Source: Candidatus Latescibacterota bacterium (GTDB taxonomy: Bacteria; Latescibacterota; UBA2968; UBA8231). Taken from it: a DNA stretch of 64,000 bases. Numbering within the stretch: the stretch's first letter is position 1; each line of letters starts with the position of its first letter. Where the stretch lies: NCBI GenBank assembly GCA_965221775.1, contig CBDCSU010000006.1:1408001-1472000 (forward strand), written 5' to 3'. The position numbers and the translations under genes are program-made. The notes below the pieces were generated by a model. That model worked only from the letters and a program-made list of their open reading frames with translations, made no database searches and was not told the DNA's origin. Shown piece by piece: positions 15,686 to 32,061 of the stretch.

Positions 15686-17383
15686 CTACACCATCTCTCC
15701 GTCGAGGGCCTCGAGGACGGACCGCACCTTCGGGTCGAGGCTCGCCTGGGGTGAGGGCCGGGCCGGCGGGGGCGCGACAGACCCCGGATTCCCGGCCGGC
15801 GCCGGCGCCTCGCGGTCTTCGACACTGCAACGGACGCGAACCTCGGGCCCGCCGGCGCTGGCCACGGCGGCGGCCACCGCGGACTCGGCTTTGGCCACCT
15901 GGGCCATGGCGAAGCGGTTGCTCCCGTCGAAGAACAGGGTGAGCACCGAACCGTTCAGCTCCCGGCGCGTGCCCTCCAGGTAGCCGGGCATCGAGGGCTG
16001 GGTCTCCCGCAGCAGATCGGTGACCCGGGGCCACAACTGCTGGATGTCGGCGTCCGCCGCCTGGGGGGGATCCGCCGCCTCCGAGGGAGTCCCCGGGGGC
16101 CCGGAGCCATCGGGGCCGGGCGCCGGTCCGGCGGCTTCCTCCGCCGCGGGAGGCGGCACGGGCGGCGGCGGAGCGGGGTCCGGGTTGCGTGACCGCGGCG
16201 GATTCCGCTGCGGCGGGGTAGCGGCGGGGGCCCCGCCGCCGGCGACGGCGGCCTCCAGGGCGGACAGCCGCGCCAGCAGGCGCCCGACGTCCACGGCGCG
16301 GCCCATGCCAGCCAGCCGGACGAGGGCCAGCTCGGTGCGGAACCGTGGCTGCAGCGACTTGCGCACCTCGGCCTCGAGCTCCATCAGGGTCTGCACGATG
16401 CGCAGCAGGTCGTCCTCGGCCAGGGCGCCGGCGGCCTCCTCGTAGCGCCGGGCCTCCTCCTCGCTGACCTCGAGCCTGGCGGCGGACTCCTGCACCTTGG
16501 TGAAGAGCAGGCGGGAGGCATGCTCCACCAGGCCGCCGACGAACTCCTCGAGGTCTCCGCCCTCCTCGAGGACCCGCGCCACGAGGTCGAGCAGCCGGCC
16601 CCCGTCGCCCTCGGCGATGGCCGAGGTGGCCTCGAAGAAGACCCCCCGATCGACCAGGCCCAGGACCTCCCGGACGCCCTCGCCGGTCACGCGGCCCCCG
16701 AAGGAGACGACCTGGTCGAGGAGGCTCTCGGCGTCCCTGAGGGCGCCGTCGGCGCGGTGGGCCAGCAGATAGAGGGCCTCCTGGTCGGCCTCGATCTTCT
16801 CGGCGGCGGTGATCTCCTCGAGGTGCCCGGCGATACTGGAGGTGGAGATGCGGCGGAAATTGAACCGCTGACAGCGCGACAGGATCGTCTCCGGAACCTC
16901 CTGGACCTCGGTGGTGGCGAAGACGAAGACGACCCGTTCCGGCGGCTCCTCGAGGGTTTTCAGGAGAGCGTTGAAAGCCGGCCGCGACAACATGTGGACT
17001 TCGTCGATGATGTAGATCTTGTGGGCGCCCTCGGTCGGGATGTAGCGAACCACCTCGCGCAGTTCCCTCACGTCGTCGACGCTGTTGTTCGAGGCGCCGT
17101 CGATCTCGAGGACGTCCATGCTCGTGCCGTCGGTGATGGCAGTGCAGGAGGGGCACTGGCCGCAGGGATCGGTCGCCTCGCCCCGGGCGGAGCAGTTGAG
17201 GGCCTTGGCGAGGATGCGCGCCGTCGTGGTCTTGCCGACCCCGCGAGGTCCGCAGAACAGGTAGCAGTGAGCGATGCGGCCGCTGGCCAGGGCGTTGGTC
17301 AGCGTGGCCGTGATATGCTCCTGCCCGACGACCTCGGAGAACCGCTGCGGGCGCCACTTGCGGGCTGTGACCTGAAAGGGCAT
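15686..17383 (-). CDS. dnaX: DNA polymerase III subunit gamma/tau
   Basis: ARKWRPQ, GPRGVGKTT, zinc module, IIDEVHML, NALLKTLEEPP, SRC. Confidence 0.97.
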   Translation of the reverse strand: MPFQVTARKWRPQRFSEVVGQEHITATLTNALASGRIAHCYLFCGPRGVGKTTTARILAKALNCSARGEATDPCGQCPSCTAITDGTSMDVLEIDGASNNSVDDVRELREVVRYIPTEGAHKIYIIDEVHMLSRPAFNALLKTLEEPPERVVFVFATTEVQEVPETILSRCQRFNFRRISTSSIAGHLEEITAAEKIEADQEALYLLAHRADGALRDAESLLDQVVSFGGRVTGEGVREVLGLVDRGVFFEATSAIAEGDGGRLLDLVARVLEEGGDLEEFVGGLVEHASRLLFTKVQESAARLEVSEEEARRYEEAAGALAEDDLLRIVQTLMELEAEVRKSLQPRFRTELALVRLAGMGRAVDVGRLLARLSALEAAVAGGGAPAATPPQRNPPRSRNPDPAPPPPVPPPAAEEAAGPAPGPDGSGPPGTPSEAADPPQAADADIQQLWPRVTDLLRETQPSMPGYLEGTRRELNGSVLTLFFDGSNRFAMAQVAKAESAVAAAVASAGGPEVRVRCSVEDREAPAPAGNPGSVAPPPARPSPQASLDPKVRSVLEALDGEMV

Positions 17384-17460: not shown

Positions 17461-17732
17461 AGGCCGTGCACCCGTCTTCGATCCCGCACCGCCGTCCGGC
17501 CGCGACCGCCGGGCTCCAGCCAGAGACCTCCGCGGCACACGCGTCAGCCTCTTACCGCTGCTACCTTCCGGTCCTGACGGGGTTCGGAAGCCTCGCGTTG
17601 CGCGGAATCCGGCTTTCGACGCCCTTCGGGTACCGACCGGAAAGACGGCTTGTGGACCTCGGACGGGGATTCGATCCCGCTAGAGCGGATTGCGGGTGCA
17701 GGGCACCGCTAACTCCCCATCTAGCACGGCCT
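17461..17732 (-). ncRNA. ffs: Signal recognition particle RNA, long (Alu-domain) bacterial type
   Basis: 5' GCCGTGCTAGATGGGGAGTTAGCGGTGCCCTGCACCCGCAATCCGCT (like Bacillus scRNA); helix-8 core CCGTCAGGACCGGAAGGTAGCAGCGG; 9-bp terminal complementarity; usual position upstream of dnaX. Confidence 0.9.
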
Positions 17733-17789
17733 GCTTCAAAGCGGGAGCCTCGCCGGCAGGTCAACCGCGGGCGGGCTCCTCAGGAATAA

Positions 17790-17865
<76 letters not shown>

Positions 17866-17877
17866 ACCGTATTCGTA

Positions 17878-17960
17878 TGGCGGAGAGAGAGGGATTCGAA
17901 CCCTCGGTGACGCTACAAACGCCACACACGATTTCCAGTCGTGCACCTTCGACCACTCGG

Positions 17961-17970
<10 letters not shown>
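17878..17970 (-). tRNA. tRNA-Ser(GGA)
   Basis: Anticodon arm CACGA-CTGGAAA-TCGTG, long variable arm, CCA. Confidence 0.96.
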
Positions 17971-18509
<539 letters not shown>

Positions 18510-18674: not shown

Positions 18675-19955
18675 ATGACGACCGCCCCAGAGCCTCTCCG
18701 CTTCCTTGACGAGGACCAGGTTCGAGCCCTTCAGAATCGCTTCGGCACGCCGCTCTACGTGTACGATCAGGAGACGCTGGAGGCCCAGGCACAGCAGGCC
18801 CTTCAGCTGCCCGCTCCATTCGGCCTGACGGTGCGCTACGCCATGAAGGCCTGTCCCTCGGCGGGGGTGGTGCGTGTCTTGACGAGGGCGGGGCTGCACA
18901 TCGACGCCAGCTCGGGCTGGGAGGCTCGACGCGCCATCGCCGCGGGCATCCCGGCGAAGCACATCCTGCTGACCACCCAGCAGCTGCCCGACGACTTCGA
19001 GGAACTGGTCGGCCTGGGGGTCCGCTTCAACGCCTGCTCTCTCGGCCAGCTCAGGGCTTACGGAGAGCGCTTTCCGGGCGCCGAGGTCGGCATCCGCCTC
19101 AATCCCGGGCTCGGCTCGGGACACTCCACCCGGACCAACGTGGGCGGGCCCTCCGCCAGTTTCGGGATCTGGCACACGCACCTGGAACGGGCCCTCGAGT
19201 CGGCACGCACGGACGGCCTGCGCATCACCCTCCTGCACACCCACATCGGCTCGGGAAGCGACCCGGAGGTGTGGCAGCACTGCGCCCGCCTGACGCTGAA
19301 CCTCGTCCGGCACCTGCCCGACGTGGCCGCCGTCAACTTGGGCGGGGGTTACAAGATCGGGCGGATGAGCGACGAGTCCTCCACCGACCTGCTCCATGCC
19401 GCGGGGCCGATCGTCGACGAGCTGCGGCGCTTCGCCACCGACGGCGGCCCCCGCCTGCGCCTGGAGATCGAGCCCGGCACCTTCCTGGTGGGCAACGCCG
19501 GGGCCGTGGTGGCCAGCGTGATCGATGTGGTTGACACCGGCAAGGAGGGTTTCTCCTTCATCAAGACGGACACGGGGATGACCGAGATCCTCCGTCCGAG
19601 CATGTACGGCGCCCAGCACCCCCTCACCGTGGTCCCGCGGGAGGACGGCGACCGTCCGCCGCGGGAGTACCTCGTCGTCGGCCACTGCTGCGAGAGCGGG
19701 GATGTCCTGACGCCGGCCCCTGGAGACCCGGAGGCGCTGCGGGTGCGCCCCCTCGCCGAGGCGCTGGTGGGCGATGCCGTCGTCATCGGCGGCGCCGGGG
19801 CCTACTGCGCGGGCATGTCCGCCAAGAACTACAACTCCTTCCCCGAGGCGCCGGAGGTGTTGCTGGACACGGACGGCGGCTTCCACCTGATGCGCAGGCG
19901 CCAGACGCTCGACCAGGTGATCGCCAACGAGTCCGTGCCCGACTTCCTCCTCTGA
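18675..19955 (+). CDS. lysA: Diaminopimelate decarboxylase
   Basis: GTPLYVYD, YAMKA (PLP Lys), HTHIGSG, NLGGG, EPG, CESGD, GAY. Confidence 0.9.
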   Translation: MTTAPEPLRFLDEDQVRALQNRFGTPLYVYDQETLEAQAQQALQLPAPFGLTVRYAMKACPSAGVVRVLTRAGLHIDASSGWEARRAIAAGIPAKHILLTTQQLPDDFEELVGLGVRFNACSLGQLRAYGERFPGAEVGIRLNPGLGSGHSTRTNVGGPSASFGIWHTHLERALESARTDGLRITLLHTHIGSGSDPEVWQHCARLTLNLVRHLPDVAAVNLGGGYKIGRMSDESSTDLLHAAGPIVDELRRFATDGGPRLRLEIEPGTFLVGNAGAVVASVIDVVDTGKEGFSFIKTDTGMTEILRPSMYGAQHPLTVVPREDGDRPPREYLVVGHCCESGDVLTPAPGDPEALRVRPLAEALVGDAVVIGGAGAYCAGMSAKNYNSFPEAPEVLLDTDGGFHLMRRRQTLDQVIANESVPDFLL

Positions 19956-19993
19956 TTCGCTGCCCGCCTCGGCGGCGGTCTATATTGGGCCGC

Positions 19994-20431
19994 ATGGTTG
20001 CGAGCGATCCGACCGCCAACCGGCACGGCCCTCTCGACTGGACGGCCCATCCGCTCCGCGAGGAGCCCGCCTGGAAGTCGGCGGCCCTGGGCGCCCTGAT
20101 CGTCGGGTTCTCCGCCCTGGCCGCCGCAAGCCTCGGCGGCGCCGTGTATGGTCTGATCTCGCTGGTGGCGCTGGCGGCAGCCACCGTCCGCTACCTGCTG
20201 CCCACGCGCTATCTCCTCGACGACCAGGAGGCTTCCTGGCGCCAGCTGACCTGGCGCCGCCGGTCGTGGTCCACCTTTCGCCGCGTCGACCGCCACGCCG
20301 ACGGCATCTTCCTGAGCCCCTTCCGGCGGCCGAGCCGGCTCGACTCCTTCCGGGGGGTGTTCCTGCGCTTCGGCCCCGGCGTCGACGCCGACGAAGTCGT
20401 AGCCCTGGCACGGGACCGTGTCCCCGCTTGA
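19994..20431 (+). CDS. Hypothetical membrane protein (2 TM + C-terminal soluble domain); first gene of the GlmL-like operon
   Basis: Two hydrophobic segments, then YLLD..RSWSTF; overlaps the next gene. Confidence 0.75.
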   Translation: MVASDPTANRHGPLDWTAHPLREEPAWKSAALGALIVGFSALAAASLGGAVYGLISLVALAAATVRYLLPTRYLLDDQEASWRQLTWRRRSWSTFRRVDRHADGIFLSPFRRPSRLDSFRGVFLRFGPGVDADEVVALARDRVPA

Positions 20432-20750
20432 GCGCCTGCGGCGCGGCTGGGCCCACGCCTTCGCCCTCGACTCCGGGGAACCCCTCTCCGAGGAGGAGCG
20501 GGCCCTCATCGAGCGCCTGGCGCGCCTCGTGGTGCGCCGCCGCATGACGGCGCCGGCCCTGATGGCGCTGGAGAGCACCCGGCCCCTGAGCTTCATGGGC
20601 AGCCAGGTGCTGGCCTTCGCCGGCCCCATGCTCAAGATCGCCTTTTCCCCCGCGGAGTACGACCACCTTCAAAGGCTGCTGGAGAGGCGCCGCAGCATCG
20701 ACTGGATCATCGAGGCGATCTCCGAGAGAGAAGACCGGCGCCGTGGATAA
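20418..20750 (+). CDS. Small helical hypothetical protein
   Basis: Overlaps both neighbours; sequence includes PALMALESTRPLSFMGSQ. Confidence 0.75.
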   Translation: MSPLERLRRGWAHAFALDSGEPLSEEERALIERLARLVVRRRMTAPALMALESTRPLSFMGSQVLAFAGPMLKIAFSPAEYDHLQRLLERRRSIDWIIEAISEREDRRRG

Positions 20751-22605
20751 GCTCGATGTGATCATCGCCACCGACTGTGGCAGCACCACCACCAAGGCGA
20801 TCCTCATCGAGCGCCGGGAGGAAGGCTACCGGCAGACCTTCCGCGGCGAGGCCCCGACCACCGTGGAGGCGCCCTTCGAGGACGTGACCCGCGGCGTGCT
20901 CAACGCCATCCAGGAGGTGGAGGAGCTGTCCGGGCGGCAGATCCTGGACGGCGAGACGATCATCACCCCGGCGGCGGACGGACGGGGCGTCGACATCTAC
21001 ATCTCCACCTCCAGCGCCGGCGGCGGCCTGCAGATGATGGTGGCCGGCGTCGTGCAGACGATGACCGGCGAGAGCGCCCAGCGCTGCGCCCTGGGGGCCG
21101 GGGCGATCGTCATGGACGTGCTGGCCTCCAACGACGGCCGTCAGCCCCACGAGAAGATCGAGCGCATCCGCCACCTGCGGCCCGACATGGTGCTGCTGTC
21201 GGGCGGCACCGACGGCGGCACCATCTCCCACGTGGTCGAGCTGGCGGAGTACGTGGCCGCCGCCGACCCCCGGCCGCGGTTCGGCGCCGGCTTCGAGCTG
21301 CCCGTGATCTTCGCCGGCAACCGGGACGCCGGCCCCGAGGTGGAGCGCGTCCTCGGCGAGCGCACGGCCCTGCACCTGACCGAGAACCTGCGCCCCATCC
21401 TGGAGCGCGAGAACCTGGGCCCGGCGCGGCACGTGATCCACGACCTGTTCCTCGAGCACGTGATGGCCCAGGCGCCCGGGTACTCGAAGCTGATGTCGTG
21501 GACCGCCGCCCCGATCATGCCGACGCCGGCGGCGGTGGGCCGCATCATGCAGGCCATCGCCCGGCGCAGGGGGATCGACGTGCTCGGCGTCGACATCGGC
21601 GGGGCCACCACGGACGTCTTCAGCGTCTTCCACACCGCCGGCGACGGACAGTCGGATCCGGCGGATTCCGGAGCGCAGGACTCCGCCGAAGGAGGGCCGA
21701 CCCCGGTCTTCAACCGCACGGTGAGCGCCAACCTCGGCATGTCCTACAGCATCTCCAACGTCCTGGCCGAGGCCTCGCTGGAGAACGTGGTGCGCTGGAT
21801 CCCCTTCGACATCGACGAGGCCGACCTGCGCGACCGCATCAAGAACAAGATGATCCGCCCCACCACGATTCCCCACATGCTCGAAGAGCTGCAGATCGAG
21901 CACGCCGTGGCCCGCGAGGCGCTGCGGCTGGCCCTCGTCCAGCACCGGGAGCTGGCCGTTGGCCTGAAGGGGGTGCAGACCGAGCGCACATTGTCCGACG
22001 TCTTCGACCAGGAGGCCACGGGCGAGAGCCTGGTGGACATGATGGTCCTCGATCTGCTGGTGGCCAGCGGAGGGGTGCTCTCCCACGCCCCGAGCCGCGC
22101 CCAGACGGCTGCCATGCTCGTCGACGCCTTCCAGCCCGAGGGCGTCACCCAGCTCGCCGTGGACAGCATCTTCATGATGCCCCACCTCGGGGTGCTGGCC
22201 TCCGTGGACGAACCGGCCGCCGCCGAGGTCTTCGAGCGCGACTGCATCATCTACCTCGGCACCTGCGTCGCCCCCTCTGGCGACGGCAAGCCCGGCGAGG
22301 TGTGCGCCACGTACGAGCTGCACCTGACCGGCGGACCGGTGCGGGAAGAGCTGCGGTGCGGCGAGCTGCGGCTGCTGCCGCTGGGCGAAGGGGAGGAAGC
22401 GGAGATGACGATCTCGCCAGCACGCGGCCGGGACGCGGGATCCGGCCCCGGGCAGGAGCATCGCGCCAAGGTCCGGGGCGGCGTCGTGGGACTGATCCTC
22501 GACGGCCGGGGCCGTCCCCTCGAGCTGCCGGAGGAAGCGGCGGACCGGCGCGCCCGGGTCGTGGAGTGGAGCGGCGCCCTCGGGCTCTACGGGGAGACGG
22601 ACTGA
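20743..22605 (+). CDS. GlmL/MutL (glutamate mutase L)-like ASKHA/actin-fold ATPase
   Basis: Phosphate-1 TDCGSTTTKA, TSSAGGGL, LLSGGTDGG, phosphate-2 VDIGGATTDVFS, RTVSANLGMSYS, SGGVLSHAP. Confidence 0.85.
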   Translation: MDKLDVIIATDCGSTTTKAILIERREEGYRQTFRGEAPTTVEAPFEDVTRGVLNAIQEVEELSGRQILDGETIITPAADGRGVDIYISTSSAGGGLQMMVAGVVQTMTGESAQRCALGAGAIVMDVLASNDGRQPHEKIERIRHLRPDMVLLSGGTDGGTISHVVELAEYVAAADPRPRFGAGFELPVIFAGNRDAGPEVERVLGERTALHLTENLRPILERENLGPARHVIHDLFLEHVMAQAPGYSKLMSWTAAPIMPTPAAVGRIMQAIARRRGIDVLGVDIGGATTDVFSVFHTAGDGQSDPADSGAQDSAEGGPTPVFNRTVSANLGMSYSISNVLAEASLENVVRWIPFDIDEADLRDRIKNKMIRPTTIPHMLEELQIEHAVAREALRLALVQHRELAVGLKGVQTERTLSDVFDQEATGESLVDMMVLDLLVASGGVLSHAPSRAQTAAMLVDAFQPEGVTQLAVDSIFMMPHLGVLASVDEPAAAEVFERDCIIYLGTCVAPSGDGKPGEVCATYELHLTGGPVREELRCGELRLLPLGEGEEAEMTISPARGRDAGSGPGQEHRAKVRGGVVGLILDGRGRPLELPEEAADRRARVVEWSGALGLYGETD

Positions 22606-23732
22606 TGGCCCACGCCTATACCCCGGGCCTGTACGTCACCCCCCACACCATCCTTCGGCGGACCCGCCGGCTGCCGTTGAAGGGCGATGTGCTGGCCGCC
22701 CCCGGCGACACCGTGGAGCGGCAGCAGGTGGTAGCCCGCACCGAGCTGCCCGGCAGTGTCTCCACGGTGAACGTCGTCAACCGGCTGGGCATCACCGCCG
22801 AGGAGCTGCCGGGGTTCATGCTCAAGGCGGAGGGAGACGAGGTGAGGCGGGGCGAGCCGATGGCCGAGACGCGGCCCTTCATCAAGTGGTTCAGGACCAC
22901 GGTGGAGTCCCCCATCGACGGCACGGTGGACAGCATCTCGCCGGTGACCGGGCAGGTCCTGCTCCGGGAGCCGCCCCTGCCCGTGGAGGTGCCGGCCTAC
23001 GTCGACGGCCAGGTGGTCGAGGTCATCGAGGACGAAGGGGTGGTGGTGGAGACACGGGGGGCCTTCGTGCAGGGGATCTTCGGTGTCGGCGGCGAGCGCT
23101 ACGGGCCCCTCCACATGCTCGCGGAGAACCCCGGGGAGCCGCTGGCAGCGCACCGGATCGACGACGGGTGCTCGGGCCGGATCGTGGTGGTCACGGGTCT
23201 GTTGTCGTACGAGGCGATCGACCGGGCCCGCGAGGTGGGCGCCGCCGGGGTGATCGGCGGCGGGATCCACGATCGGGACCTGCGGCGGCTGCTGGGCTAC
23301 GACCTCGGCGTCGCCATCACCGGCACCGAGGAGATCGGGCTGACGGTGATCGTCACCGAGGGGTTCGGCGAGATCGCCATGGCCGGCCGGACCTTCGAGA
23401 TCCTCCGGGAGTGCCACGGACGGCAGGCCTCGATCTCGGGGGCGACCCAGATCCGGGCGGGGGTCATGCGCCCCGAGATCATCGTGCCCGACCTGACGGC
23501 ACCGGGAGAGGCGGAGGCCGGCGAGGGAAGCCGCGGGGGAGGGATGGCGCAGGGAGACCCCCTTCGTATCATCCGGGCCCCGTACTTCGGCCGCATCGGC
23601 AGGGTGGGCGAGCTGATCCCCGACCTGCGGCCGGTCGAGTCCGGCGCCTCGGTGCGGGTGCTGGAGGTCGAGTTCGAGGACGGCTCGCGGGCCGTGGTGC
23701 CGCGGGCCAACGTGGAGCTGATCGCAGGATGA
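22605..23732 (+). CDS. Hypothetical protein with barrel-sandwich-hybrid-like repeats and C-terminal KOW-like domain
   Basis: PGDTVERQQVVA / EGDEVRRGEPMA / SPIDGTV / AYVDGQV segments; GDPLRIIRAPYFGRIGRV; TGATG coupling to the upstream gene. Confidence 0.8.
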   Translation: MAHAYTPGLYVTPHTILRRTRRLPLKGDVLAAPGDTVERQQVVARTELPGSVSTVNVVNRLGITAEELPGFMLKAEGDEVRRGEPMAETRPFIKWFRTTVESPIDGTVDSISPVTGQVLLREPPLPVEVPAYVDGQVVEVIEDEGVVVETRGAFVQGIFGVGGERYGPLHMLAENPGEPLAAHRIDDGCSGRIVVVTGLLSYEAIDRAREVGAAGVIGGGIHDRDLRRLLGYDLGVAITGTEEIGLTVIVTEGFGEIAMAGRTFEILRECHGRQASISGATQIRAGVMRPEIIVPDLTAPGEAEAGEGSRGGGMAQGDPLRIIRAPYFGRIGRVGELIPDLRPVESGASVRVLEVEFEDGSRAVVPRANVELIAG

Positions 23733-24940
23733 CGGACTTCGGTAAGACCCTGACCCTGGTCGCCGGACTCGGGCTGCTGGCCGGAGCCGGAGCGCAGGAG
23801 CCGGCGGCGCTCGAGATCGATCTCTTCGACACGCCGAACGACGACGGCGGCAGCCTGACCCTGACCTGGCGCGCCGATGCCGCCCCCGCGGGCAGCCGCT
23901 ACCGCGTCTACCTCGCCGAATTGCCGGCGGGCCCCTTCCACGTGGCCGCCGAGACCATGGCCCCCGGGCTGATGTCGGACGAGCCGGCCCTCTTCGGCCG
24001 CGATCCCGCCAACGCCGACCGCTACGTGCTTCACCTCACGGGCTACACGCCCGAGGGGGAGGAGAAGCCGAGGGCCCTCGAAGACGGCACGACGTACCAG
24101 GCCCGTCTCGTGGCGGGGGACGGCGCCGCGGAGCGGCGCAGCGAGGTGGCGGCGGCGGCGCCCGCCGCCAACCTGTTCAACACCGCCAAGCTGAACAACC
24201 TCGTCCTCGCCGTGGCCCTGTCGGTGGTGATCCTACTGTTCATCGCCGTGGCCCGGCGCCGGGAGCTGTACATCCGGCGCATCGGGGGCCTGGAAGCCCT
24301 CGACGAGGCCCTGGGGCGGGCCACCGAGATGGGCCGCTCGGTGCTGTTCGTCCACGGCCTGAAGGGCATGGACCAGATCCCGACGATCGCCGCCGTCAAC
24401 ATCCTCGGGCGGGTGGCGCGGCGCACGGCGCGCCTCGACGCCGAGCTGCGGGTGGCCAACGTCGACCCCGTGGTCATGTCGGTGAGCCAGGAGGTGGTGA
24501 AGGAGGCCTGCCTGGAGGAGGGCCGGCCCGACGCCTACCGGCCGGGGGACGTGTTCATGGCCGGCACCGAGCAGTTCTCCTACGCCGCGGCCCTGGAGGG
24601 CATCATGGTCCGCGACCGCCCCGCGGCGCACATCATGATGGGCTACTTCTACGCCGAGTCGCTGCTCCTCACCGAGACGGGCAGCACTACCGGAGCCATC
24701 CAGATCGCCGGCACCGACGCCTACACGCAGCTGCCGTTCTTCGTCACCACCTGCGACTACACCCTGATGGGGGAGGAGCTGTACGCGGCCAGCGCCTACC
24801 TGTCGAAGGAGCCGCGCCTCCTCGGCAGCCTGCGCGGCCAGGACGTGGGCAAGGCGGTGCTCATCCTCGTGCTCATCGCCGGCACCGCCCTTTCCACGGC
24901 CGGCGTCGACTTCCTGACCCACCTGTCCGCCTCCCTGTGA
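23729..24940 (+). CDS. Signal peptide + FN3-like domain + DUF6754-like membrane protein
   Basis: DTPNDDGGSLTLTW, TM helix, IRRIGGLEALDEALGRATEMGR, QIAGT..QLPFF..CDYTLMGEELYAASAYL, C-terminal TM. Confidence 0.8.
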   Translation: MTDFGKTLTLVAGLGLLAGAGAQEPAALEIDLFDTPNDDGGSLTLTWRADAAPAGSRYRVYLAELPAGPFHVAAETMAPGLMSDEPALFGRDPANADRYVLHLTGYTPEGEEKPRALEDGTTYQARLVAGDGAAERRSEVAAAAPAANLFNTAKLNNLVLAVALSVVILLFIAVARRRELYIRRIGGLEALDEALGRATEMGRSVLFVHGLKGMDQIPTIAAVNILGRVARRTARLDAELRVANVDPVVMSVSQEVVKEACLEEGRPDAYRPGDVFMAGTEQFSYAAALEGIMVRDRPAAHIMMGYFYAESLLLTETGSTTGAIQIAGTDAYTQLPFFVTTCDYTLMGEELYAASAYLSKEPRLLGSLRGQDVGKAVLILVLIAGTALSTAGVDFLTHLSASL

Positions 24941-24950
24941 GAGGAAGCCG

Positions 24951-25610
24951 ATGCCATTCCTGACACGGACCCTGCCCTTCGCCATCTGCTTCCTCTTCGG
25001 CGTCGCCGGCTTCGCCATCTTCTACAGCCCCCACCCCTATGCGGAAGAGACCACACAGGCCTTCGCCCTGTGGCTGCGGGTGGTCTCCGCCTTCGCCTAC
25101 TTCCTCGGTCTCTACAGCCTCCTCAACCTGCACTGGTCCAAGATCCGGCTGCGGCAGTCCGGCTGGGCCTACAGCCTGATCGTCTACATCAGCTTCGGCG
25201 TCATGTGCCTCTTCGTCCTCTACAACGAGGGGCACGGACCTCTGCAGGCGCAGTCGAAGACCGGCGCCTACCAGTGGATGTTCACCCACATCCACGTGGC
25301 CAGCTCGGCGACGATGTTCTCCACCCTCGCCTTCTTCATCTCCTCGGCGGCGTACCGCACCTTCCGGGCGCGCACCTCCGAGGCGGCGATCCTGCTGGTC
25401 TCGGCGGTGATCGTCATGCTCGGACGGGTGCCGATCGGGGGTTACCTGTCGGAGACCATCCCCGAGGCCATGCAGTGGCTCATGACGGTGCCCAACATGG
25501 CGGCCAAGCGCGGCATCCTGCTCGGCGTCAGTCTCGGCGCCATCGCCACCTCCCTGCGCATCATCTTCGGCATCGAGCGTTCCTATCTCGGCGGCGGGGG
25601 GGAGGAGTAG
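24951..25610 (+). CDS. Hypothetical polytopic membrane protein (~6 TM)
   Basis: Hydrophobic helices; TMFSTLAFFISSAAYRTFRAR, PNMAAKRGILLG..LRIIFGIER. Confidence 0.8.
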   Translation: MPFLTRTLPFAICFLFGVAGFAIFYSPHPYAEETTQAFALWLRVVSAFAYFLGLYSLLNLHWSKIRLRQSGWAYSLIVYISFGVMCLFVLYNEGHGPLQAQSKTGAYQWMFTHIHVASSATMFSTLAFFISSAAYRTFRARTSEAAILLVSAVIVMLGRVPIGGYLSETIPEAMQWLMTVPNMAAKRGILLGVSLGAIATSLRIIFGIERSYLGGGGEE

Positions 25611-25613
25611 ACC

Positions 25614-26444
25614 ATGGACCGGCTGATCAACCTGGACCGCCGCTTCATCTTCGTCTTCGTCTTCCTGGGCGTGGCCATCCCCCTGCTCGTGGACATCCCC
25701 CTGCCGATCAAGCCGTCTCCCACGGTGCGCTCGGTGTACGACGAGATCGAGAGAGTGGCCGCCGAGGACGCCGGCCGGCCGGTGCTGGTCTCGTTCTCGT
25801 ACGGCGCCAGCACCGAGCCGGAGATGGTACCGATGACCCGCGCCGTCCTGCGCCACCTCTTCCAGCGCGGGCTGAAGGTGGTCGGCATCTGCCTGTGGCC
25901 CGATGCGGTGGGGCTCGCCCAGCCGGAGATGGACGAGCTGGCCGCCGAGTTCGGCCGCCGGTACGGGGTCGACTACGCTTTCCTTGGCTACAAGATCGGC
26001 TATCAGGCGGTGGTGCTGAACATGGGGCAGAGCGTGGCCGACACCTTCCCCTTCGACACCGAGGGGACCCCGGTGGGCGACCTGCCGGTGCTGGCGGGGG
26101 TGGAGAGCCTGAAGGACTTCTCCTTCGTCTTCGACTTCGCCGCCGGCGATTCCATGGAGTTCTGGTGGATCCCGTACGGCCAGGAGAAGCACCGGTTCCC
26201 CTTCGGCGGGGGCTGCACGGCGGTGATGGCCCCCGACCTCTACCCCTTCCTGCAGTCGGGGCAGCTCGTGGGCCTCCTCGGCGGGCTGGCCGGGGCCGCC
26301 GAGTACGAGACGCTGGTGGACGCGCCCGGTCGAGCCACCGACGGCATGCAGCCGCAGTCCGTGACCCACGTGATCATCGTCCTGTTCATCATCCTGGGCA
26401 ATATCGCCTACTTCGCCTCCCGCCGGCGGGACAGGCAGGCCTGA
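25614..26444 (+). CDS. Hypothetical protein with TM - alpha/beta domain - TM layout
   Basis: N- and C-terminal TM helices; YGVDYAFLGY, YPFLQSGQLVGLLGGLAGAAEYE; GGAGGAG RBS. Confidence 0.8.
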   Translation: MDRLINLDRRFIFVFVFLGVAIPLLVDIPLPIKPSPTVRSVYDEIERVAAEDAGRPVLVSFSYGASTEPEMVPMTRAVLRHLFQRGLKVVGICLWPDAVGLAQPEMDELAAEFGRRYGVDYAFLGYKIGYQAVVLNMGQSVADTFPFDTEGTPVGDLPVLAGVESLKDFSFVFDFAAGDSMEFWWIPYGQEKHRFPFGGGCTAVMAPDLYPFLQSGQLVGLLGGLAGAAEYETLVDAPGRATDGMQPQSVTHVIIVLFIILGNIAYFASRRRDRQA

Positions 26445-26451
26445 GGACGCC

Positions 26452-27174
26452 ATGACTCGAGACCTCTACCTGTTCGCCGGCTTCGTCGCCCTCTTCGCCG
26501 CGGCCAACGCCGTGCTCATCGGCAACGGACTGCTGGAGGCCGACCGGGAGGGGGCGGGCGTCATCGTCGCCGCCGGGTTCACGCTGGCCCTGTACAGCTT
26601 CCTCTACAAGGACAATCCCCTGTTCAAGGCCGCCGAGCATGTGTACGTGGGCGTCGCGGCGGCGTACGTCTTCGGCATCACCTGGTACAACGTCTTCCTC
26701 GACGACATCATCCGGACCTACGCCGATCTGGACGGCGGCGGCGGCGGACACGACCCCTGGGTGATGCTGTTCCCCACCCTCCTGGGCGTGCTGATGCTCA
26801 CCCGGTTCTCGCGCCGCTTCGGCTGGCTGAGCCGGCTCTCCTTCGCCTTCGTCGTCGGTGTCGGCGCCGGCCTCACCATCCCCCGGTACCTGTCCTCTTT
26901 CGTCCTGGGGCAGATCGAGCCCAGCCTGGCGCCCATCACCCTCTCCTGGGAGGGGTTCAACCTGCTGCTGATCCTGGTGGGGGTCCTGACCGTGCTCATC
27001 TACTTCTTCTTCTCCGTGGAGCACACCGGGGCCGTGGGCACCGCCTCCAAGGTCGGCATCTGGTTCCTGATGATCTCCTTCGGAGCCTCCTTCGGGTACA
27101 CGGTCATGGCCCGCCTGTCGCTGCTCATCGGGCGGGTCCGCTTTCTGCTCGACGACTGGCTGAACCTGATGTAG
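26452..27174 (+). CDS. Hypothetical polytopic membrane protein (~7 TM)
   Basis: YSFLYKDNPLFKAAEHVYVG, YFFFS, FLMISFGASFGYTVMARLSLLIGR. Confidence 0.8.
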   Translation: MTRDLYLFAGFVALFAAANAVLIGNGLLEADREGAGVIVAAGFTLALYSFLYKDNPLFKAAEHVYVGVAAAYVFGITWYNVFLDDIIRTYADLDGGGGGHDPWVMLFPTLLGVLMLTRFSRRFGWLSRLSFAFVVGVGAGLTIPRYLSSFVLGQIEPSLAPITLSWEGFNLLLILVGVLTVLIYFFFSVEHTGAVGTASKVGIWFLMISFGASFGYTVMARLSLLIGRVRFLLDDWLNLM

Positions 27175-27196: not shown

Positions 27197-28174
27197 TCAG
27201 ATCTCGTCCTTGCGGATGCAGGCGGCGGTGTGGCCGCCGCCACCGACGGGCTCCAGCTCCGGGACCTGCCCGCGGCAGGCGTCGGCGGCGAAGGGGCAGC
27301 GGGGGTGGAAGGCGCACCCCGCGGGCGGGTTCACGGCGCTCGGCGTCTCCCCGAGGATCGGCTGGCGCTCGCGGCGGCGGCGTGGGTCGGCGACGGGCAC
27401 GGCCTCGAGCAGGGCCCGCGTGTACGGATGGGCCGGCCGCGCGAACACCTCGTCCCGGGAGCCGACCTCCACGAGGCGTCCCAGATACATGACGGCGACT
27501 TGGTCGCTGAGGTACTCCACCACCGACAGGTCGTGGGAGATGAGCAGGTAGGAGAGGCCGCGCTCCTGCTGGAAGCGCACGAGGAGGTTGAGCACCTGCC
27601 CCTGCACCGAGACGTCGAGGGCGGAGACCGGCTCGTCGGCGACGATGACCTTCGGCCCCAGGGCGAGGCTGCGGGCGATGCCGATGCGCTGCCGCTGGCC
27701 GCCGGAGAACTCGTGGGGATAGCGGTCCTGCACGGCCGGGTCGAGACCGACGGCCTCGAGGAGACCGTCGACCTGCTCGCGCCGCTCGGCCCGCGTCCCC
27801 AGGGAGTGCACGTCGAGGGGCTCGCGCACGGTCTCGCCCACCGACAGCCTCGGGTTGAGCGAGGAGTAGGGGTCCTGGAAGATCATCTGCATGTCGCGCC
27901 GCAGGGCGAACAGCTCCTGCGCCGTGGCCCGCGCCAGGTCGCGCCCCTCGAAGCGGACGGCGCCCGCCGTCGGATCTTCGAGCCGCATCATGGTCCGCCC
28001 CAGGGTCGACTTGCCGCAGCCGGACTCACCGACCAGGCCCAGGGTCCGGCCCGGCGGCAGGTCGAAGGAGACGCCGTCCACGGCCTTCACGCTCTGCCTC
28101 CGGCGCCCGAAGAGGCCGCCGCCCACCGGGTAGTGCTTGCGCAGGCCGCGGACCTCGACGACGGGGGCGCTCAC
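27197..28174 (-). CDS. Oligopeptide ABC transporter ATPase (OppF/DppF-like)
   Basis: GESGCGKS, FSGGQRQR, ADEPVSALD, HPYT, C-terminal Cys cluster. Confidence 0.93.
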   Translation of the reverse strand: MSAPVVEVRGLRKHYPVGGGLFGRRRQSVKAVDGVSFDLPPGRTLGLVGESGCGKSTLGRTMMRLEDPTAGAVRFEGRDLARATAQELFALRRDMQMIFQDPYSSLNPRLSVGETVREPLDVHSLGTRAERREQVDGLLEAVGLDPAVQDRYPHEFSGGQRQRIGIARSLALGPKVIVADEPVSALDVSVQGQVLNLLVRFQQERGLSYLLISHDLSVVEYLSDQVAVMYLGRLVEVGSRDEVFARPAHPYTRALLEAVPVADPRRRRERQPILGETPSAVNPPAGCAFHPRCPFAADACRGQVPELEPVGGGGHTAACIRKDEI

Positions 28175-29145
28175 ACCGCCTCCAGGGGATAGTGGCAGGC
28201 GGCCAGGTGGCCGTCGGCGACCGGTTCCAGGGGCGGGTCCTGGCGGCGGCAGAGCTCCTCGGCGCGGGGACAGCGGTCGGCGAAGCGGCAGCCCGGCGGC
28301 GGATCGAGGAGCGAAGGGACGACCCCCTCGATGGTGGGCACGCCGTCGCCCCGGGTCCGGCCCGGACGCAGGATGCTGTCGAGGAGGCCCCGCGTATAGG
28401 GGTGGCGGCTGCCCTCGAAGAGCTCGATGACGCCGCAGCGCTCCACCACCTTGCCGGCGTACATGACCACCACCTCGTCGCAGGTCTCGGCCACGACCCC
28501 CATATCGTGGGTGATGAGCAGGATGGCGGTGCCCAGCTCCCTCTGCAGCTGCTTCATCAGGTGCAGGATCTGGGCCTGCACGGTCACGTCGAGGGCGGTG
28601 GTCGGCTCGTCGGCGATGAGCAGGTCCGGCTCGCACATGAGGGCCATGGCGATCATGATGCGCTGCTTCATGCCGCCGCTGAGCTCGTGGGGGTACTGGT
28701 CCAGCCGGCTCTCGGCGTCGGCGATCCCCACGCGCTGCAGCATCTCCGCCATGCGGGCGCCAGCGGCCTCTCCCTGCAGGCCGAAGCGCTTCTCCAGGAC
28801 CTCCCCAAGCTGGCGGCGCACGGTGAAGACCGGGTTGAGGGAGGTCATGGGGTCCTGGAAGATCATGGCGATCTCCCGGCCGCGGATCGCCGGCATCTCG
28901 TCGGGGTCGACGGCGAGCAGGTCCCTCCCCTTCCACAGGACCCGTCCGTCCTCGATGCGCCCGGGCGGGTCGGGGATCAGGCGCATCACCGACATGGCGC
29001 TGACGCTCTTGCCGCACCCGGACTCGCCGACGATCCCCACGGTGGCGCCGGCGCGCACCTCGAAGGAGACGCCGTCCACCGCCTGCACGACGCCGTCCTC
29101 CGTGCGGAAGACGGTGCGCAGGTCCTCGACTCGCAGAAGCGCCAT
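28171..29145 (-). CDS. Oligopeptide ABC transporter ATPase (OppD/DppD-like)
   Basis: GESGCGKS, LSGGMKQR, ADEPTTALD, HPYT. Confidence 0.93.
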   Translation of the reverse strand: MALLRVEDLRTVFRTEDGVVQAVDGVSFEVRAGATVGIVGESGCGKSVSAMSVMRLIPDPPGRIEDGRVLWKGRDLLAVDPDEMPAIRGREIAMIFQDPMTSLNPVFTVRRQLGEVLEKRFGLQGEAAGARMAEMLQRVGIADAESRLDQYPHELSGGMKQRIMIAMALMCEPDLLIADEPTTALDVTVQAQILHLMKQLQRELGTAILLITHDMGVVAETCDEVVVMYAGKVVERCGVIELFEGSRHPYTRGLLDSILRPGRTRGDGVPTIEGVVPSLLDPPPGCRFADRCPRAEELCRRQDPPLEPVADGHLAACHYPLEAV

Positions 29146-29161
29146 GGGCAGAGCCGTCCGC

Positions 29162-30985
29162 CTACTCCGGGGCCGCGGCGGCGCGCAGGGCCGCCTCGAT
29201 GCGGTCCTTCACCCGGTAGGGGTCGATGTCGACGACCGGGTCCGCCCCGAGGGAACGGCCCTCGGCCATCGCTTCCCGCAGCCTTTCCCGCCGGTCCTCG
29301 TCGACCCAGAAGACCTGCCAGTCGGTCATCTGCTGGGTGCGCTTGGGGAAATAGAACTCCGGGAAGCGGAGGTGGTCCCAGTGCAGGAGCCGCATGAAGG
29401 GCGCGTGCCAGAAGGGCACGTAGAAGGCCTCGTCCTGAACGATGGCGTCGAGGTCGTGCATCGCCGCCAGCCGGCGCTCCTTGTCGGTGTCGAAGCGGTA
29501 GACGTCGATGAGGGAGTCGGTGTGCGCGGTCCCGAAGGCCCAGACGTTGTTGTTGTTCTTCGACTCCTTGAAGACGGTGGAGAAGTACTGGTGGGGGCTC
29601 GGGAAGAGGCCGGCGGTGCGCCCCATGATCGTCATCTCGTACTCCCGCTCCAGGCCGTTGCGGAAGGCGGTGCCGGGCTCCAGCAGGCGCAGGGACATGT
29701 CGACGCCGAAGCGCTGGAAGGTCTGCTTCACCACCGTCATATGGCGCTCCAGTCCCTTGCTTCCGTACGAGAGGGTGAAGGCGGCGCGGGTGCCCTCGCC
29801 GTCGACGAGAATGCCGTCCTCGCCCCGGCGGGTGAAGCCCGCCGCCTTCAGGTGCTCGCGCGCCTTGCGCGGGTCGAAGCCGTACGGCACCAGGTCCCGG
29901 TTCTCGTACTCGGTGCCGGTGAAGGCCGAGACCTGCCGGTAGTAGGCATTGTGCATCAGCTTGGAGTTGATCTCGTCGAAGTGGAAGAGGTACTGGATCG
30001 CCTTGCGGAAGTCCTTGTTCCGGAAGATCGGCCGCTCGAGGTTCATGGCGAAGCCGTACACGCCCTGGGGAAAGTCGATGAAGAGCCGCTTGCGGTGGGC
30101 CCAGCCCTGCTGCAGGGCCTCGAAGTCCATCTCCTCGGCCCACATGCGGGCCGTGTTCACGCTGTAGTAGTCGAGCTCTCCCTTCTTGAAGAAATCGAAG
30201 GCGCGGTCGGTGTCGTCGATGACGCGCACGTGGATGCGGTCGACGTTGTAGAGGCCCCGCATGTAGTGCTTGTCCCGGCCCCACCAGTCCTTCAGGCGTT
30301 CGAAGACGACGTACTGCCCCGGCACCCGCTCGGTGAGCACGTAGGCGCCCTGCACCGGCAGGACGGCGTCGTTGTAGCGGTCGGGAAACCCCTCCTCGAG
30401 GGTGACGGCGTGCCTCGGGGTCGCCCAGAGAGCGAACATGTCCAGGGGACGCCAGCTCTCGAACCGGCCCACCACCTTGAGCACGTGAGGCTCCAAGGCG
30501 ACGACCTCCTCGAAGTAGTCCTCGGCGTACTGGTTGAAGAAGGGGTCGACGATGTGCTCGCTGCGCATCATCTGCCAGGTGTGCACGTAGTCCTCGGCCG
30601 TGATCGGCCTGCCGTCGCTCCAGCGGGCGTCGGGATCGAGCCTGTAATAGATGGTCCGCCCGTCCTCCTGCACCGACCAGTGGGTGGCCATGACCGGGAT
30701 GTGGCGGTCCGTCGTGGGGTGGCGCGTGACCATGGTCAGGGCCATGGTGAGGGCCCGCTTCCAGGCGGCGAAGGCGTCGTTGGCGTTGGGGCCGACGATG
30801 CGCAGGGTCAGGGGGTAGGCGGTCATGAAGGTGCGGAACTCGCCCCCCTTGCGGGCGGCGGCATCGCCGATGGGCGGGTCGTCGGTGTTGGTCTCCCACT
30901 CGATGGCGGAGAGATCCTCGGCGCCGCCACGGGCGCCCAGGGCGAGGAGGAGCAGGGGGATGATGAGAGGGAAGCGGCGCCCCAT
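29162..30985 (-). CDS. Family-5 solute-binding protein (YejA-like)
   Basis: Signal peptide, ARKGG, ARWSDGRPITAED, WWGRD, FDP..AREHL. Confidence 0.88.
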   Translation of the reverse strand: MGRRFPLIIPLLLLALGARGGAEDLSAIEWETNTDDPPIGDAAARKGGEFRTFMTAYPLTLRIVGPNANDAFAAWKRALTMALTMVTRHPTTDRHIPVMATHWSVQEDGRTIYYRLDPDARWSDGRPITAEDYVHTWQMMRSEHIVDPFFNQYAEDYFEEVVALEPHVLKVVGRFESWRPLDMFALWATPRHAVTLEEGFPDRYNDAVLPVQGAYVLTERVPGQYVVFERLKDWWGRDKHYMRGLYNVDRIHVRVIDDTDRAFDFFKKGELDYYSVNTARMWAEEMDFEALQQGWAHRKRLFIDFPQGVYGFAMNLERPIFRNKDFRKAIQYLFHFDEINSKLMHNAYYRQVSAFTGTEYENRDLVPYGFDPRKAREHLKAAGFTRRGEDGILVDGEGTRAAFTLSYGSKGLERHMTVVKQTFQRFGVDMSLRLLEPGTAFRNGLEREYEMTIMGRTAGLFPSPHQYFSTVFKESKNNNNVWAFGTAHTDSLIDVYRFDTDKERRLAAMHDLDAIVQDEAFYVPFWHAPFMRLLHWDHLRFPEFYFPKRTQQMTDWQVFWVDEDRRERLREAMAEGRSLGADPVVDIDPYRVKDRIEAALRAAAAPE

Positions 30986-30999
30986 GGCGGTCCTTTCGT

Positions 31000-32061
31000 C
31001 TATCGGTAGTGGGCGTACTGCTTGGGGTCGAAGGCCTCGCGGATCGACTCGCCCACGAGGGTCACCAGCACGAGAGTTGCGGAGAGGGCCGAGAAGGGGG
31101 CCACGGAGAGCCAGATCTTGTCGCGGTTTTGGCTGTCCAGGGCCTGGTCGATCATCTCGCCCCAGCTCGGCGTCGGCGCCGGCAGGCCGTAGCCGAGGTA
31201 GTCCAGGGCCGTCAGGGCGCTGATGGCGCCGACGAGAGCGAAGGGCGTGATCGTCACCAGGGGCGTCAGGCAGTTGGGCAGCAGGTGGCGGAAGATCAGC
31301 CGCCGGCGCGAGGCCCCGAAGGAGCGCGCCGCCAGGCAGTAGTCGCGCGTCTTCTCGCGGTAGACCTCGGTGCGCATGTAGTAGGTCATGCGGATCCACT
31401 CGAAGAGGGCCATGATCACCAGCAGCAGCCCGAAACTGGGCTTGAAGAACGTGGCCAGGAGGATGACCACGTAGAGGAAGGGCAGGGTCGACCAGATCTC
31501 TATGAAGCGCTGGCTGAGGATATCGAAGCGGCCGCCCACGAAGCCCTGCAGGGCGCCGATGGCGGTGCCCGCCGCCTGGCTGGTGAAGACCAGGGCCACG
31601 GCAAAGAGGATGGAGATGCGGAAACCGTAGAGGAGCCGGGCGAAGACGTCCCGGCCCTGGGAGTCGGTGCCGAACCAGTGCCGGGAGTCGGGGGGGTTGG
31701 GCGGCGGATCTTCATAGCTGAAGTCGGGCTCGTAGGGGTCGAAGGGGACGACCGGCATCCACACCCAGTCGCCGCCGCCGGCCTCCTGGAACCGCGCCCG
31801 CAGGGCCGCGTAGTCGGCCTCGACGTCGTCGAAGCCGTACTCGTCCTGCTGGCCGAAGGTGGCCATGTCGTGGAAGCGGAAAGTGGGGAAGAAGTACTCC
31901 CCCTGGTAGTGGACGACGATGGCCCGCCGGTTGGCGACGTAGTTGGAGAGCAGGGACAGGACGGTGAGGCCCAGCAGGATCAGGAAGGAGACGTAGCCCC
32001 GGCGGATGCGGCGGAACCGTCGCAGGCGCAGGCGGGTGATCGGATCGAGGCGCGGGATCAT
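31000..32061 (-). CDS. Peptide ABC permease (YejE/OppC-like)
   Basis: RFRRIRRGY, HWFGTDSQGRDVFARL, EAA-like loop, HLLPN, PTPSWGE. Confidence 0.9.
   Translation of the reverse strand: MIPRLDPITRLRLRRFRRIRRGYVSFLILLGLTVLSLLSNYVANRRAIVVHYQGEYFFPTFRFHDMATFGQQDEYGFDDVEADYAALRARFQEAGGGDWVWMPVVPFDPYEPDFSYEDPPPNPPDSRHWFGTDSQGRDVFARLLYGFRISILFAVALVFTSQAAGTAIGALQGFVGGRFDILSQRFIEIWSTLPFLYVVILLATFFKPSFGLLLVIMALFEWIRMTYYMRTEVYREKTRDYCLAARSFGASRRRLIFRHLLPNCLTPLVTITPFALVGAISALTALDYLGYGLPAPTPSWGEMIDQALDSQNRDKIWLSVAPFSALSATLVLVTLVGESIREAFDPKQYAHYR

Follow-up and report, generated by a model that had tools for sequence, protein, structure and literature searches.

What does an ATPase of the GlmL/MutL family, so far viewed only as a helper of B12 mutases, do in a gene cluster that encodes its own set of membrane proteins and no B12 enzyme? 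The question is raised by eight genes, here called g1 to g8, within a 64,000-nucleotide (nt) stretch of a Candidatus Latescibacterota genome (C6:1408001-1472000; hereafter the window). An earlier note, made from the sequence alone, had described these genes as an orphan operon and a candidate ATP-driven membrane machine. Calls of open reading frames (ORFs) bore out its layout of eight co-oriented genes joined by overlaps or gaps of 10 nt or less: the sizes agreed, and the junctions comprised overlaps of 14, 8, 1 and 4 nt, followed by gaps of 10, 3 and 7 nt (Table 1). Only g3 (MutL) and g5 (DUF6754) matched Pfam or NCBIfam above threshold; the other six genes gave no such match. Our leading, still tentative reading is that the cluster encodes a widespread and undescribed two-module ATPase system, associated with the membrane and no accessory of a B12 enzyme. 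The fold and Pfam family of g3 are known; what is new is the system as a whole, which fits no described kind. A literature search, with subscription journals and supplementary files outside its reach, found no paper on DUF6754 or PF13941 and none linking GlmL-type proteins with membrane proteins.

The cluster proved to be conserved as a set. Among 80 related, Gemmatimonadota-type loci fetched from species genomes, 69 carried all eight genes in the same order and on the same strand, and the remaining 11 held only some of the genes with their order preserved, most of these loci being truncated at contig ends. Median identity to the window proteins ranged from 49% (g1) to 73% (g3) across these loci. 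The genes thus stay together across genomes, as the earlier note had supposed, while its term 'orphan' had to be abandoned: the eight-gene order recurs, and more than 7283 DUF6754 homologs at E<=1e-3 were found among 8000 candidates scored. The nearest named ones came from Gemmatimonadaceae and Gemmatimonadota, and others were labeled Latescibacterota. Complementarily, we assessed co-occurrence in 140 genomes of the phylum (Gemmatimonadota) with at least 85% completeness. DUF6754 was found in 122 of these and g4 in 123; both were present in 122 genomes and both absent from 17, and in the one genome where they disagreed, g4 sat at the edge of a contig. Co-loss was seen in four relatives that have no DUF6754, including a 6.7-Mb genome in a single contig: g4 was missing as well, and none of the four held a MutL protein above the Pfam cut-off, a 20-bit sub-threshold match in G013 being the only trace. 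Together, these patterns of presence, absence and co-loss indicate that the set is inherited and lost as a unit and is dispensable. Cultured Gemmatimonas species appear to carry the cluster, and a bench test is possible because a contig of a genome labeled Gemmatimonas phototrophica holds g4 to g8.

The protein encoded by g3 matched Pfam MutL (PF13941) over its full length (427.3 bits, E 8.7e-128, residues 7-501, profile positions 1-450 of 450), far above the gathering score of 27 bits, which places it in that family. In contrast, it fell below all three NCBIfam cut-offs, namely those of GlmL (NF040745, 231.7 versus 475 bits), Or-4 (NF040744, 201.5 versus 600 bits) and glmL_fam (TIGR01319, 171.5 versus 204.05 bits). 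A C-terminal extension of about 120 amino acids (aa) follows the actin-fold (ASKHA) ATPase part. Both phosphate loops, DCGSTTTK and DIGGATTD, are intact, as claimed before, and identical in 70 of 70 aligned orthologs; in a set of 43 distant homologs, a simple pattern search detected the first loop 37 times and the second 30 times. By these conserved phosphate-1 and phosphate-2 loops, g3 classes as a predicted ASKHA ATPase, and it would be expected to have ATPase activity. It is the sole MutL-family gene of the host genome and is 53-66% identical to homologs from distant metagenome loci. Weak matches to Hydantoinase_A (18.5 bits versus a cut-off of 22.9) and Hydant_A_N were also seen, and neither sequence nor profile searches gave a significant solved-structure relative of g3, g4 or g5. 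One distant locus contains a second MutL-family paralog of 635 aa (L116:4266-6170), which is located 2 kb before g2-g3-g4 and itself follows a g1-like gene.

The founding members of Pfam MutL are encoded within glutamate mutase operons, and membership in this family could mean that g3 is simply a conventional reactivase of an adenosylcobalamin mutase encoded elsewhere, with the membrane genes as unrelated neighbors. However, the 96.8% complete host genome contains neither Met_asp_mut_E (PF06368, the glutamate mutase E subunit) nor MM_CoA_mutase (PF01642, methylmalonyl-CoA mutase), so that g3 does not qualify as a GlmL in functional terms. No B12-binding domain occurs within the window, in agreement with the earlier note, which had recognized no mutase or B12-binding subunit in operon or window. 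The genome's two PF02310 proteins lie far from it: the first, at C4:650530, is a corrinoid protein that has a URO-D-like methyltransferase and a RACo activator of its own as gene neighbors, and the second, at C6:422404, is a MerR/CarH-like regulator. Lysine and ornithine aminomutases, which need a PF02310 domain, were not searched by name; the PF02310 search returned only these corrinoid and CarH-like proteins. Across 26 loci with Pfam-scanned flanks, we encountered a single mutase; the locus concerned lacks g3, and the mutase gene lies on the opposite strand at a distance of 3 kb. A tie between the ATPase and a mutase elsewhere, which could have undone the earlier proposal, therefore did not emerge from the genome search. 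Since the genome lacks glutamate mutase and methylmalonyl-CoA mutase, a B12-reactivase role is effectively excluded, and with g3 also under the GlmL, Or-4 and glmL_fam cut-offs we consider the conventional reactivase reading close to refuted. As a separate observation, the corrinoid protein (249 aa) in the region G000:C4:646000-655000 (L176) belongs to a corrinoid-dependent methyltransferase set, together with the URO-D-like enzyme and a RACo-type activator, likewise an actin-fold ATPase.

The most conserved core of the cluster is formed by g3 together with g4. An AlphaFold2 (AF2) model of g4, with a predicted local distance difference test (pLDDT) score of 84, was mostly beta with a central alpha/beta domain, matching the earlier description of a beta-rich soluble protein of 375 aa. 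In this model, an N-terminal barrel-sandwich-hybrid-like beta domain and a C-terminal KOW/SH3-like small barrel enclose a central swivelling-like alpha/beta domain. Foldseek returned domain-level matches only (the KOW domain of NusG/Spt5, RraA and the swivel/mobile domain of rifampin phosphotransferase), and Pfam matches remained sub-threshold (Biotin_lipoyl; RnfC_N with 16.4 versus 25.6 bits). With the g4 profile, 3230 representative clusters (50% identity level) scored E<=1e-3, and 931 of them reached E<=1e-30. The motifs TEGFG and TQxRxGxxRPE are invariant across phyla, and the invariant polar residues are E164, E252, T281, Q282, R284, R289, E291, N369 and E371. Two specific roles were considered for g4 and rejected. 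A phosphorelay resembling the phosphotransferase system (PTS), as the combination of swivel and hybrid-motif domains might suggest, was dropped because no histidine or cysteine is invariant across phyla, and a lipoyl or biotin carrier role because the Biotin_lipoyl-matching segment is without a lysine.

Natural fusions connect the two core proteins. Two of the best 150 g4 clusters contained proteins of about 1000 aa with MutL at the N terminus and g4 at the C terminus: P0143 (995 aa, a length shared by 8 of 12 cluster members) and P0223 (1003 aa), the g4 part spanning residues 621-994 or 641-1002. One fusion cluster is source-named Candidatus Ozemobacteraceae, and the fusions, too, give weak Hydantoinase_A/Hydant_A_N matches. 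Because such fusions exist, g3-g4 is the best-supported physical pairing of the cluster, and they are our best evidence that the two proteins probably act together physically. A complex prediction combining g4 with g5 (residues 146-403), g6 and g2 scored 0.13 against a mark of 0.32 and speaks neither for nor against a complex.

On the membrane side, g5 matched DUF6754 (PF20539) at residues 146-398 with 369 bits (E 1.3e-110), compared with a gathering score of 27 bits, and thus belongs to this Pfam family. A signal peptide, an FN3/Ig-like ectodomain, a transmembrane (TM) helix, the DUF6754 domain and a C-terminal TM helix follow one another, with the two helices (157-175 and 377-395 by hydropathy) on either side of the soluble part. 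The N-terminal part was modeled as an Ig/FN3-like sandwich with pLDDT 80-90, although Foldseek E values reached only about 1e-3, with none <=1e-3. Signal peptide, ectodomain model and PF20539 match together uphold the earlier assignment of g5 as an exported FN3-like/DUF6754-like protein. DUF6754 residues 279-371 had pLDDT values below 50; because of this low confidence, Nir2-domain Foldseek matches of the model (root-mean-square deviation >25) were disregarded. Longer DUF6754 proteins, of which 641 with 707-2015 aa were found at E<=1e-3, carried the domain at their C-terminal end in 14 of 14 cases scanned, behind N-terminal regions of about 490 to 1200 aa. Four of these 14 showed a recognized N-terminal fn3 domain, PQQ_2 (BamB-like) propeller or RGI_lyase beta domain; the others had N-terminal parts of differing length and no family. 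Source labels of the long proteins include Planctomycetota, Brocadiia, Eremiobacterota, Vulcanimicrobiota, Zixibacteria and Edwardsbacteria, and the DUF6754 part was 49-67% identical to that of the window in 120 listed long homologs. The outer domain of g5 differs between lineages, and its DUF6754 part is strongly conserved.

Hydropathy supported the membrane character attributed before to g1 and g5 to g8. It gave about six TM helices for g6, whose mean column identity was 73%, and about five to seven for g8, in which invariant motifs include E190-H191 and SFGASFGYT. For neither protein was a Pfam family consistently common to 39 orthologs at E<=1 or a relative in the PDB found (by profile in the case of g6), and g6 gave only sub-threshold Pfam matches (TMD0_ABC with 16.6 versus 27 bits, ABC2_membrane_3 with 13.4 versus 31.6). 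Judged by these alignments, g6 and g8 are strongly conserved yet match no family. In g7, an N-terminal and a C-terminal TM helix (hydropathy) bracket a domain of about 215 aa that is predicted to be periplasmic, its topology being read from charge distribution only; g7 had no Pfam match and no significant PDB profile match. Its look-alike clusters in the atlas are labeled Latescibacterota, Chloroflexota and Fidelibacterota, the latter two labels being added by the look-alikes of g4 and g7. Rnf-Nqr membrane families matched none of g6, g7 and g8, and g5 to g8 match no transporter family, consistent with the earlier statement that the membrane subunits show no ATP-binding cassette (ABC), energy-coupling factor (ECF), tripartite ATP-independent periplasmic (TRAP) or Rnf signature. 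Internal paralogy of g5/g7 and g6/g8 was also considered and found neither by BLASTP nor by profile comparison.

The two small proteins at the start of the cluster could connect its halves. Hydropathy predicts g1 to be a two-helix membrane hairpin (TM 30-48 and 47-65) with a cytoplasmic tail of about 75 aa; it matched nothing in Pfam or NCBIfam and preceded g2 in 70 of the 80 related loci, with a median identity of 49%. The second, g2, is a 110-aa helical protein with a moderately hydrophobic middle, no Pfam match and invariant residues R41, E52, R55-P56 and G61-S62-Q63 in 41 orthologs. In distant loci, it lies just upstream of g3 or between g4 and g5 and usually accompanies g3 or g5; it is possibly an adaptor. 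No fused g2 was found among longer proteins, which is weak evidence.

Distant relatives revealed how the parts combine. A g4 alignment headed by a homolog with a Bacillota label was used to collect 80 diverse loci from metagenomes. Where the locus had room, g3 lay directly upstream of g4 in 28 of 45 cases, 0.5-1.9 kb upstream in 8 and was absent in 9. In 18 loci, g4 was flanked by 6 kb or more of sequence on each side; five of these also hold g5 to g8. Two membrane modules each were present in L108, L143 and L170. These contents indicate that the system is modular. Neither a consistent metabolic neighbor nor linked cell-wall synthesis genes appeared in the scanned flanks. Several individual arrangements are worth recording. 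An OmpR-type response regulator and a histidine kinase directly follow g4 in three loci without g3 (L107, L127, L164), and in L106 and L113 g4 is followed by a protein of about 300 aa with no known identity and by accA. In two distant full clusters, a gene for an LplA/LipB-type lipoyl/biotin protein ligase comes directly after g8 (L117:7382-8269 and L165:11915-12700), the latter locus having glycine-cleavage T and P genes upstream. Three low-G+C loci (L108, L143, L159) share a gene for a PP-loop protein (NAD_synthase/QueC-like, about 270 aa), which immediately precedes g1 or lies close to g4.

Among the closer relatives, genes of an Opp-type peptide importer recur beside the cluster. In the window, a complete Opp/Dpp-type ABC importer converges on g8; it is genomically linked to the cluster and a putative functional member. 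Of the 80 related loci, 62 had one or more Opp-type genes no farther than 3 kb from the cluster, and at least five different arrangements were seen. Most often (30 of 80), a family-5 binding protein gene stands alone, co-directional and ending within about 40 nt of g1. Thirteen loci, plus two truncated ones, have two OppD/F-like ATPase genes just after g8, and in nine others, plus one truncated, binding protein and two permeases are inserted between g3 and g4 with the ATPases after g8, yielding a 13-gene co-directional array. The convergent operon of the window and its genus occurs in four loci, besides a few mixed forms. The binding protein encoded upstream of g1 and the one inserted between g3 and g4 share 64% identity, which indicates a single gene that occupies two alternative positions. 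Opp parts missing from the locus were located elsewhere in three complete genomes, so that the pieces stay with the cluster rather than with each other. We read this as a lineage-specific functional association with peptide uptake, which the linkage suggests and does not prove. Peptidases and a class IV aminotransferase, along with the Opp genes, also occur near the cluster. In two loci, the OppD/F genes are followed by a protein of about 1190 aa with PD40 beta-propeller repeats (L086:15645-19211, L061:15547-19122), that of L086 giving a sub-threshold Peptidase_MA_2 match (25.9 versus 32.4 bits).

Our best guess, held with low to moderate confidence, is that these proteins form an ATP-driven conformational machine acting through the membrane. 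The soluble module would comprise the actin-fold ATPase g3 and its obligate partner g4, for which g1 and g2 may serve as membrane adaptors, while in the membrane module, g5 to g8, both g5 and g7 would put a domain outside the cytoplasm. Through ATP binding and hydrolysis, g3 would close and open; g4 would relay this movement to the cytoplasmic face of g5 to g8, on which g3-g4 would dock, perhaps through g1 and g2; and the membrane module would turn the relayed movement into work on its outer face. In Gemmatimonadota, this work would probably serve peptide acquisition through the linked Opp-type importer. We infer four elements of the scheme, namely the ATPase activity, the binding of the soluble to the membrane module, the direction of coupling and the link to peptide uptake. 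For the stoichiometric complex put forward in the earlier note, the evidence is genomic, consisting of synteny, co-loss and the g3-g4 fusion, and the eight products are thus a candidate complex; the note's word 'recruited' would moreover imply that the ATPase descends from B12 reactivases. A more far-reaching proposal is that the GlmL-like ATPase and g4 drive transmembrane work via a four-protein module whose outer domain is swapped between lineages, and so represent a new class of envelope machine; this is possible but doubtful. If true, it would be a case of mechanotransmission by a motor fold not known to play such a part, and it would be conserved across more than 10 phylum labels; an ATPase driving work across the membrane would be a new type of motor for bacterial events outside the cytoplasm. 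The gain or loss of the whole set as one unit points to a real machine, carried by phyla that are abundant in soils, sediments and oceans and poorly studied, and the locus reveals a large, strongly conserved GlmL/MutL branch with its own partner and membrane proteins and no B12 enzyme to serve.

Several points weigh against a two-module membrane system. The contact of g3 and g4 with the membrane proteins is a presumed one, the g5 model has low confidence in its DUF6754 half, and to our knowledge there is no precedent for mechanotransmission by an actin-fold ATPase. Nine of the 18 well-flanked metagenome loci hold g3-g4 alone and four g4 alone; because g3-g4 often stands without g5 to g8 nearby, the soluble pair may be functional on its own in many organisms. 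Because of the kinship among the related genomes, synteny and co-occurrence counts are not independent events and overstate independence. Finally, the Opp linkage is mostly of Gemmatimonadota type, with one case (L167) among the 18 distant loci, and the window's Opp binding protein shares no more than 21-25% identity with its linked counterpart in other families; binding protein and permeases of the window taken together are 21-36% identical to the linked ones, and its ATPases 56%.

With a B12 role set aside, the loci holding only g3-g4 lead to the idea that the two are a soluble, ATP-dependent enzyme pair acting on a small molecule, for which g5 to g8, and Opp in Gemmatimonadota, would only supply or sense the substrate. 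This would account for the fusions, given that fused A/B oxoprolinases exist, for the weak Hydantoinase_A/Hydant_A_N matches in g3 and the fusions, for the invariant polar residues of g4 and for the peptidases, aminotransferase and Opp genes nearby. Yet g4 has no Hydantoinase_B match and a different fold, the 26 flank-scanned loci share no consistent metabolic neighbor, g5 to g8 match no permease family, and g4 and DUF6754 were concordant in 139 of 140 genomes. We therefore regard an enzyme pair as unlikely. A new primary transporter, as proposed by the earlier note, would in our version use g6 and g8 as the pathway, g5 and g7 as accessory proteins and g3-g4 to energize import, perhaps of a substrate from the family-5 binding protein. 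Two conserved polytopic proteins and the 30 loci in which the binding-protein gene closely precedes g1 without an ABC permease in the locus fit such a scheme. The absence of any transporter family signature in g5 to g8 does not, and the missing Opp permeases and ATPases exist elsewhere in the genomes checked, so that the binding protein has conventional partners; as OppD/F ATPases, too, are encoded next to the cluster, this importer would have no need of another motor. Moreover, the large, variable ectodomains of DUF6754 proteins would be unusual for a permease subunit, and we know of no actin-fold-driven transporter, which makes this explanation decidedly improbable.

We give still less credence to a membrane-tethered cytoskeletal or morphogenetic system, in which g3 would polymerize like MreB or FtsA and g5 to g8 would link it to the envelope like MreC, MreD and RodZ. 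The actin fold family of g3, which at 53-66% identity across distant loci is as conserved as cytoskeletal actins, and the MreBCD-like cast of bitopic and polytopic partners speak for it. However, g3 matches neither MreB, FtsA nor PilM, no MutL/GlmL family member is known to us to polymerize, the system is dispensable, being absent from 17 of 140 genomes and from whole families, and no cell-wall synthesis genes are linked to it in the scanned flanks.

The surroundings of the cluster in the window, which has a G+C content of about 70%, are summarized in Table 1. A terminator-like hairpin (19957-19978) lies 3' of the upstream decarboxylase gene and precedes g1, suggesting that g1 to g8 may be their own transcription unit. 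RNA-library contigs from two studies (coded X1-X3) match parts of g2 to g8; in X2 and X3, each contig (150-340 nt) has 0-3 differences from the window. The contigs span the junctions g5/g6, g6/g7 and g7/g8 and leave parts of the stretch uncovered, gaps from which nothing is concluded. As such libraries can contain DNA and a contig is no proof of a single transcript, this is a weak hint of transcription. No riboswitch, cobalamin riboswitches included, or other RNA element was found near the cluster in the window or in L045, L061, L086 and L117. A tetratricopeptide-repeat (TPR) protein and a class IV aminotransferase come after the importer, and beyond the latter follows an ORF of 749 aa without a Pfam family. 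Upstream of the cluster, the signal recognition particle (SRP) RNA directly after dnaX is followed by three tRNAs (17464-18064 overall), and a complete rRNA operon further downstream accounts for a dip in G+C to 0.55. DUF6785/DUF6784 proteins (about 650-750 aa) are hugely expanded, with 21 copies in the host genome and 16-43 copies in five relatives; examples lie 36-40 kb before the window (G000:C6:1367808-1369313 and C6:1371067-1372560), in L174 and L175, and near the two g4-only loci L153 and L159. The idea of the cluster as a shared energizer for DUF6785 proteins was rejected, because the four relatives without the cluster still have 16-43 DUF6785/DUF6784 copies.

Table 1. Features of the window in and around the g1-g8 cluster (positions in nt, counted from the first letter of the window).
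Feature	Position	Strand	Remark
dnaX	15686-17383	-	upstream of cluster
SRP RNA	17464-17729	-	upstream of cluster
Three tRNAs	17790-18064	-	upstream of cluster; tRNA-Ala(cgc), tRNA-Ser(gga), tRNA-Ser(cga)
TadA-like deaminase			upstream of cluster
Orn/DAP/Arg-type decarboxylase	18675-19955	+	upstream of cluster
g1	19994-20431	+	145 aa
g2	20418-20750	+	110 aa
g3	20743-22605	+	620 aa
g4	22605-23732	+	375 aa
g5	23729-24940	+	403 aa
g6	24951-25610	+	219 aa
g7	25614-26444	+	276 aa
g8	26452-27174	+	240 aa
Opp/Dpp-type ABC importer	27197-33113	-	complete, convergent; by Pfam
OppF-like	27197-28192	-	
OppD-like	28171-29145	-	
Family-5 binding protein	29162-30985	-	
Two permeases	31000-32061 and 32058-33113	-	
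ORF	35111-37360	-	749 aa
rRNA operon	47231-52320	-	5S, 23S, a tRNA, 16S

Compared with described systems, the cluster shares single features with several. GlmL and Or-4, of glutamate mutase and the ornithine pathway, belong to the same PF13941 family, and g3 retains their actin-fold nucleotide loops; it differs from them in falling under the NCBIfam cut-offs, in its C-terminal extension of about 120 aa, in having g4 as a partner and membrane proteins as neighbors, and in a genome without a mutase. The diol/glycerol dehydratase reactivases, EutA and RACo are, like g3, actin-fold ATPases, and they use ATP-driven conformational change on a partner. Diol dehydratase reactivase contains a swivelling domain, to be compared with the Foldseek matches of the central g4 domain to swivelling domains. 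In contrast to these proteins, g3 has no sequence match to solved structures, the swivel-like domain is on a separate protein and there is no B12 target, the genome's own RACo lying elsewhere than the cluster. Hydantoinase/oxoprolinase A-B proteins are of the same clan as g3 and form a two-protein unit that is sometimes fused, but g3 stays below the Hydantoinase_A cut-off and Hydantoinase_B is found neither in g4 nor among its neighbors. With Rnf/Nqr, the cluster has in common an N-terminal barrel-sandwich-hybrid domain (in g4, with RnfC_N sub-threshold), small polytopic subunits and a subunit with a periplasmic domain; however, g6 to g8 show no family match, no flavin or iron-sulfur motifs were noted, and the matches listed for g4 by Foldseek (ranks to 49) include no Rnf/Nqr chain. 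In their logic, and in logic only, FtsEX, LolCDE, MacB, PilM-PilN-PilO and MreB-MreC-MreD resemble the proposed system, as each combines a cytoplasmic ATPase with membrane partners exposing outer domains. No homology to them was detected, and either the motor fold (ABC) or the family (MreB/PilM) differs. FtsEX, LolCDE and MacB work by mechanotransmission, and the cluster would follow a similar logic with a different motor fold.

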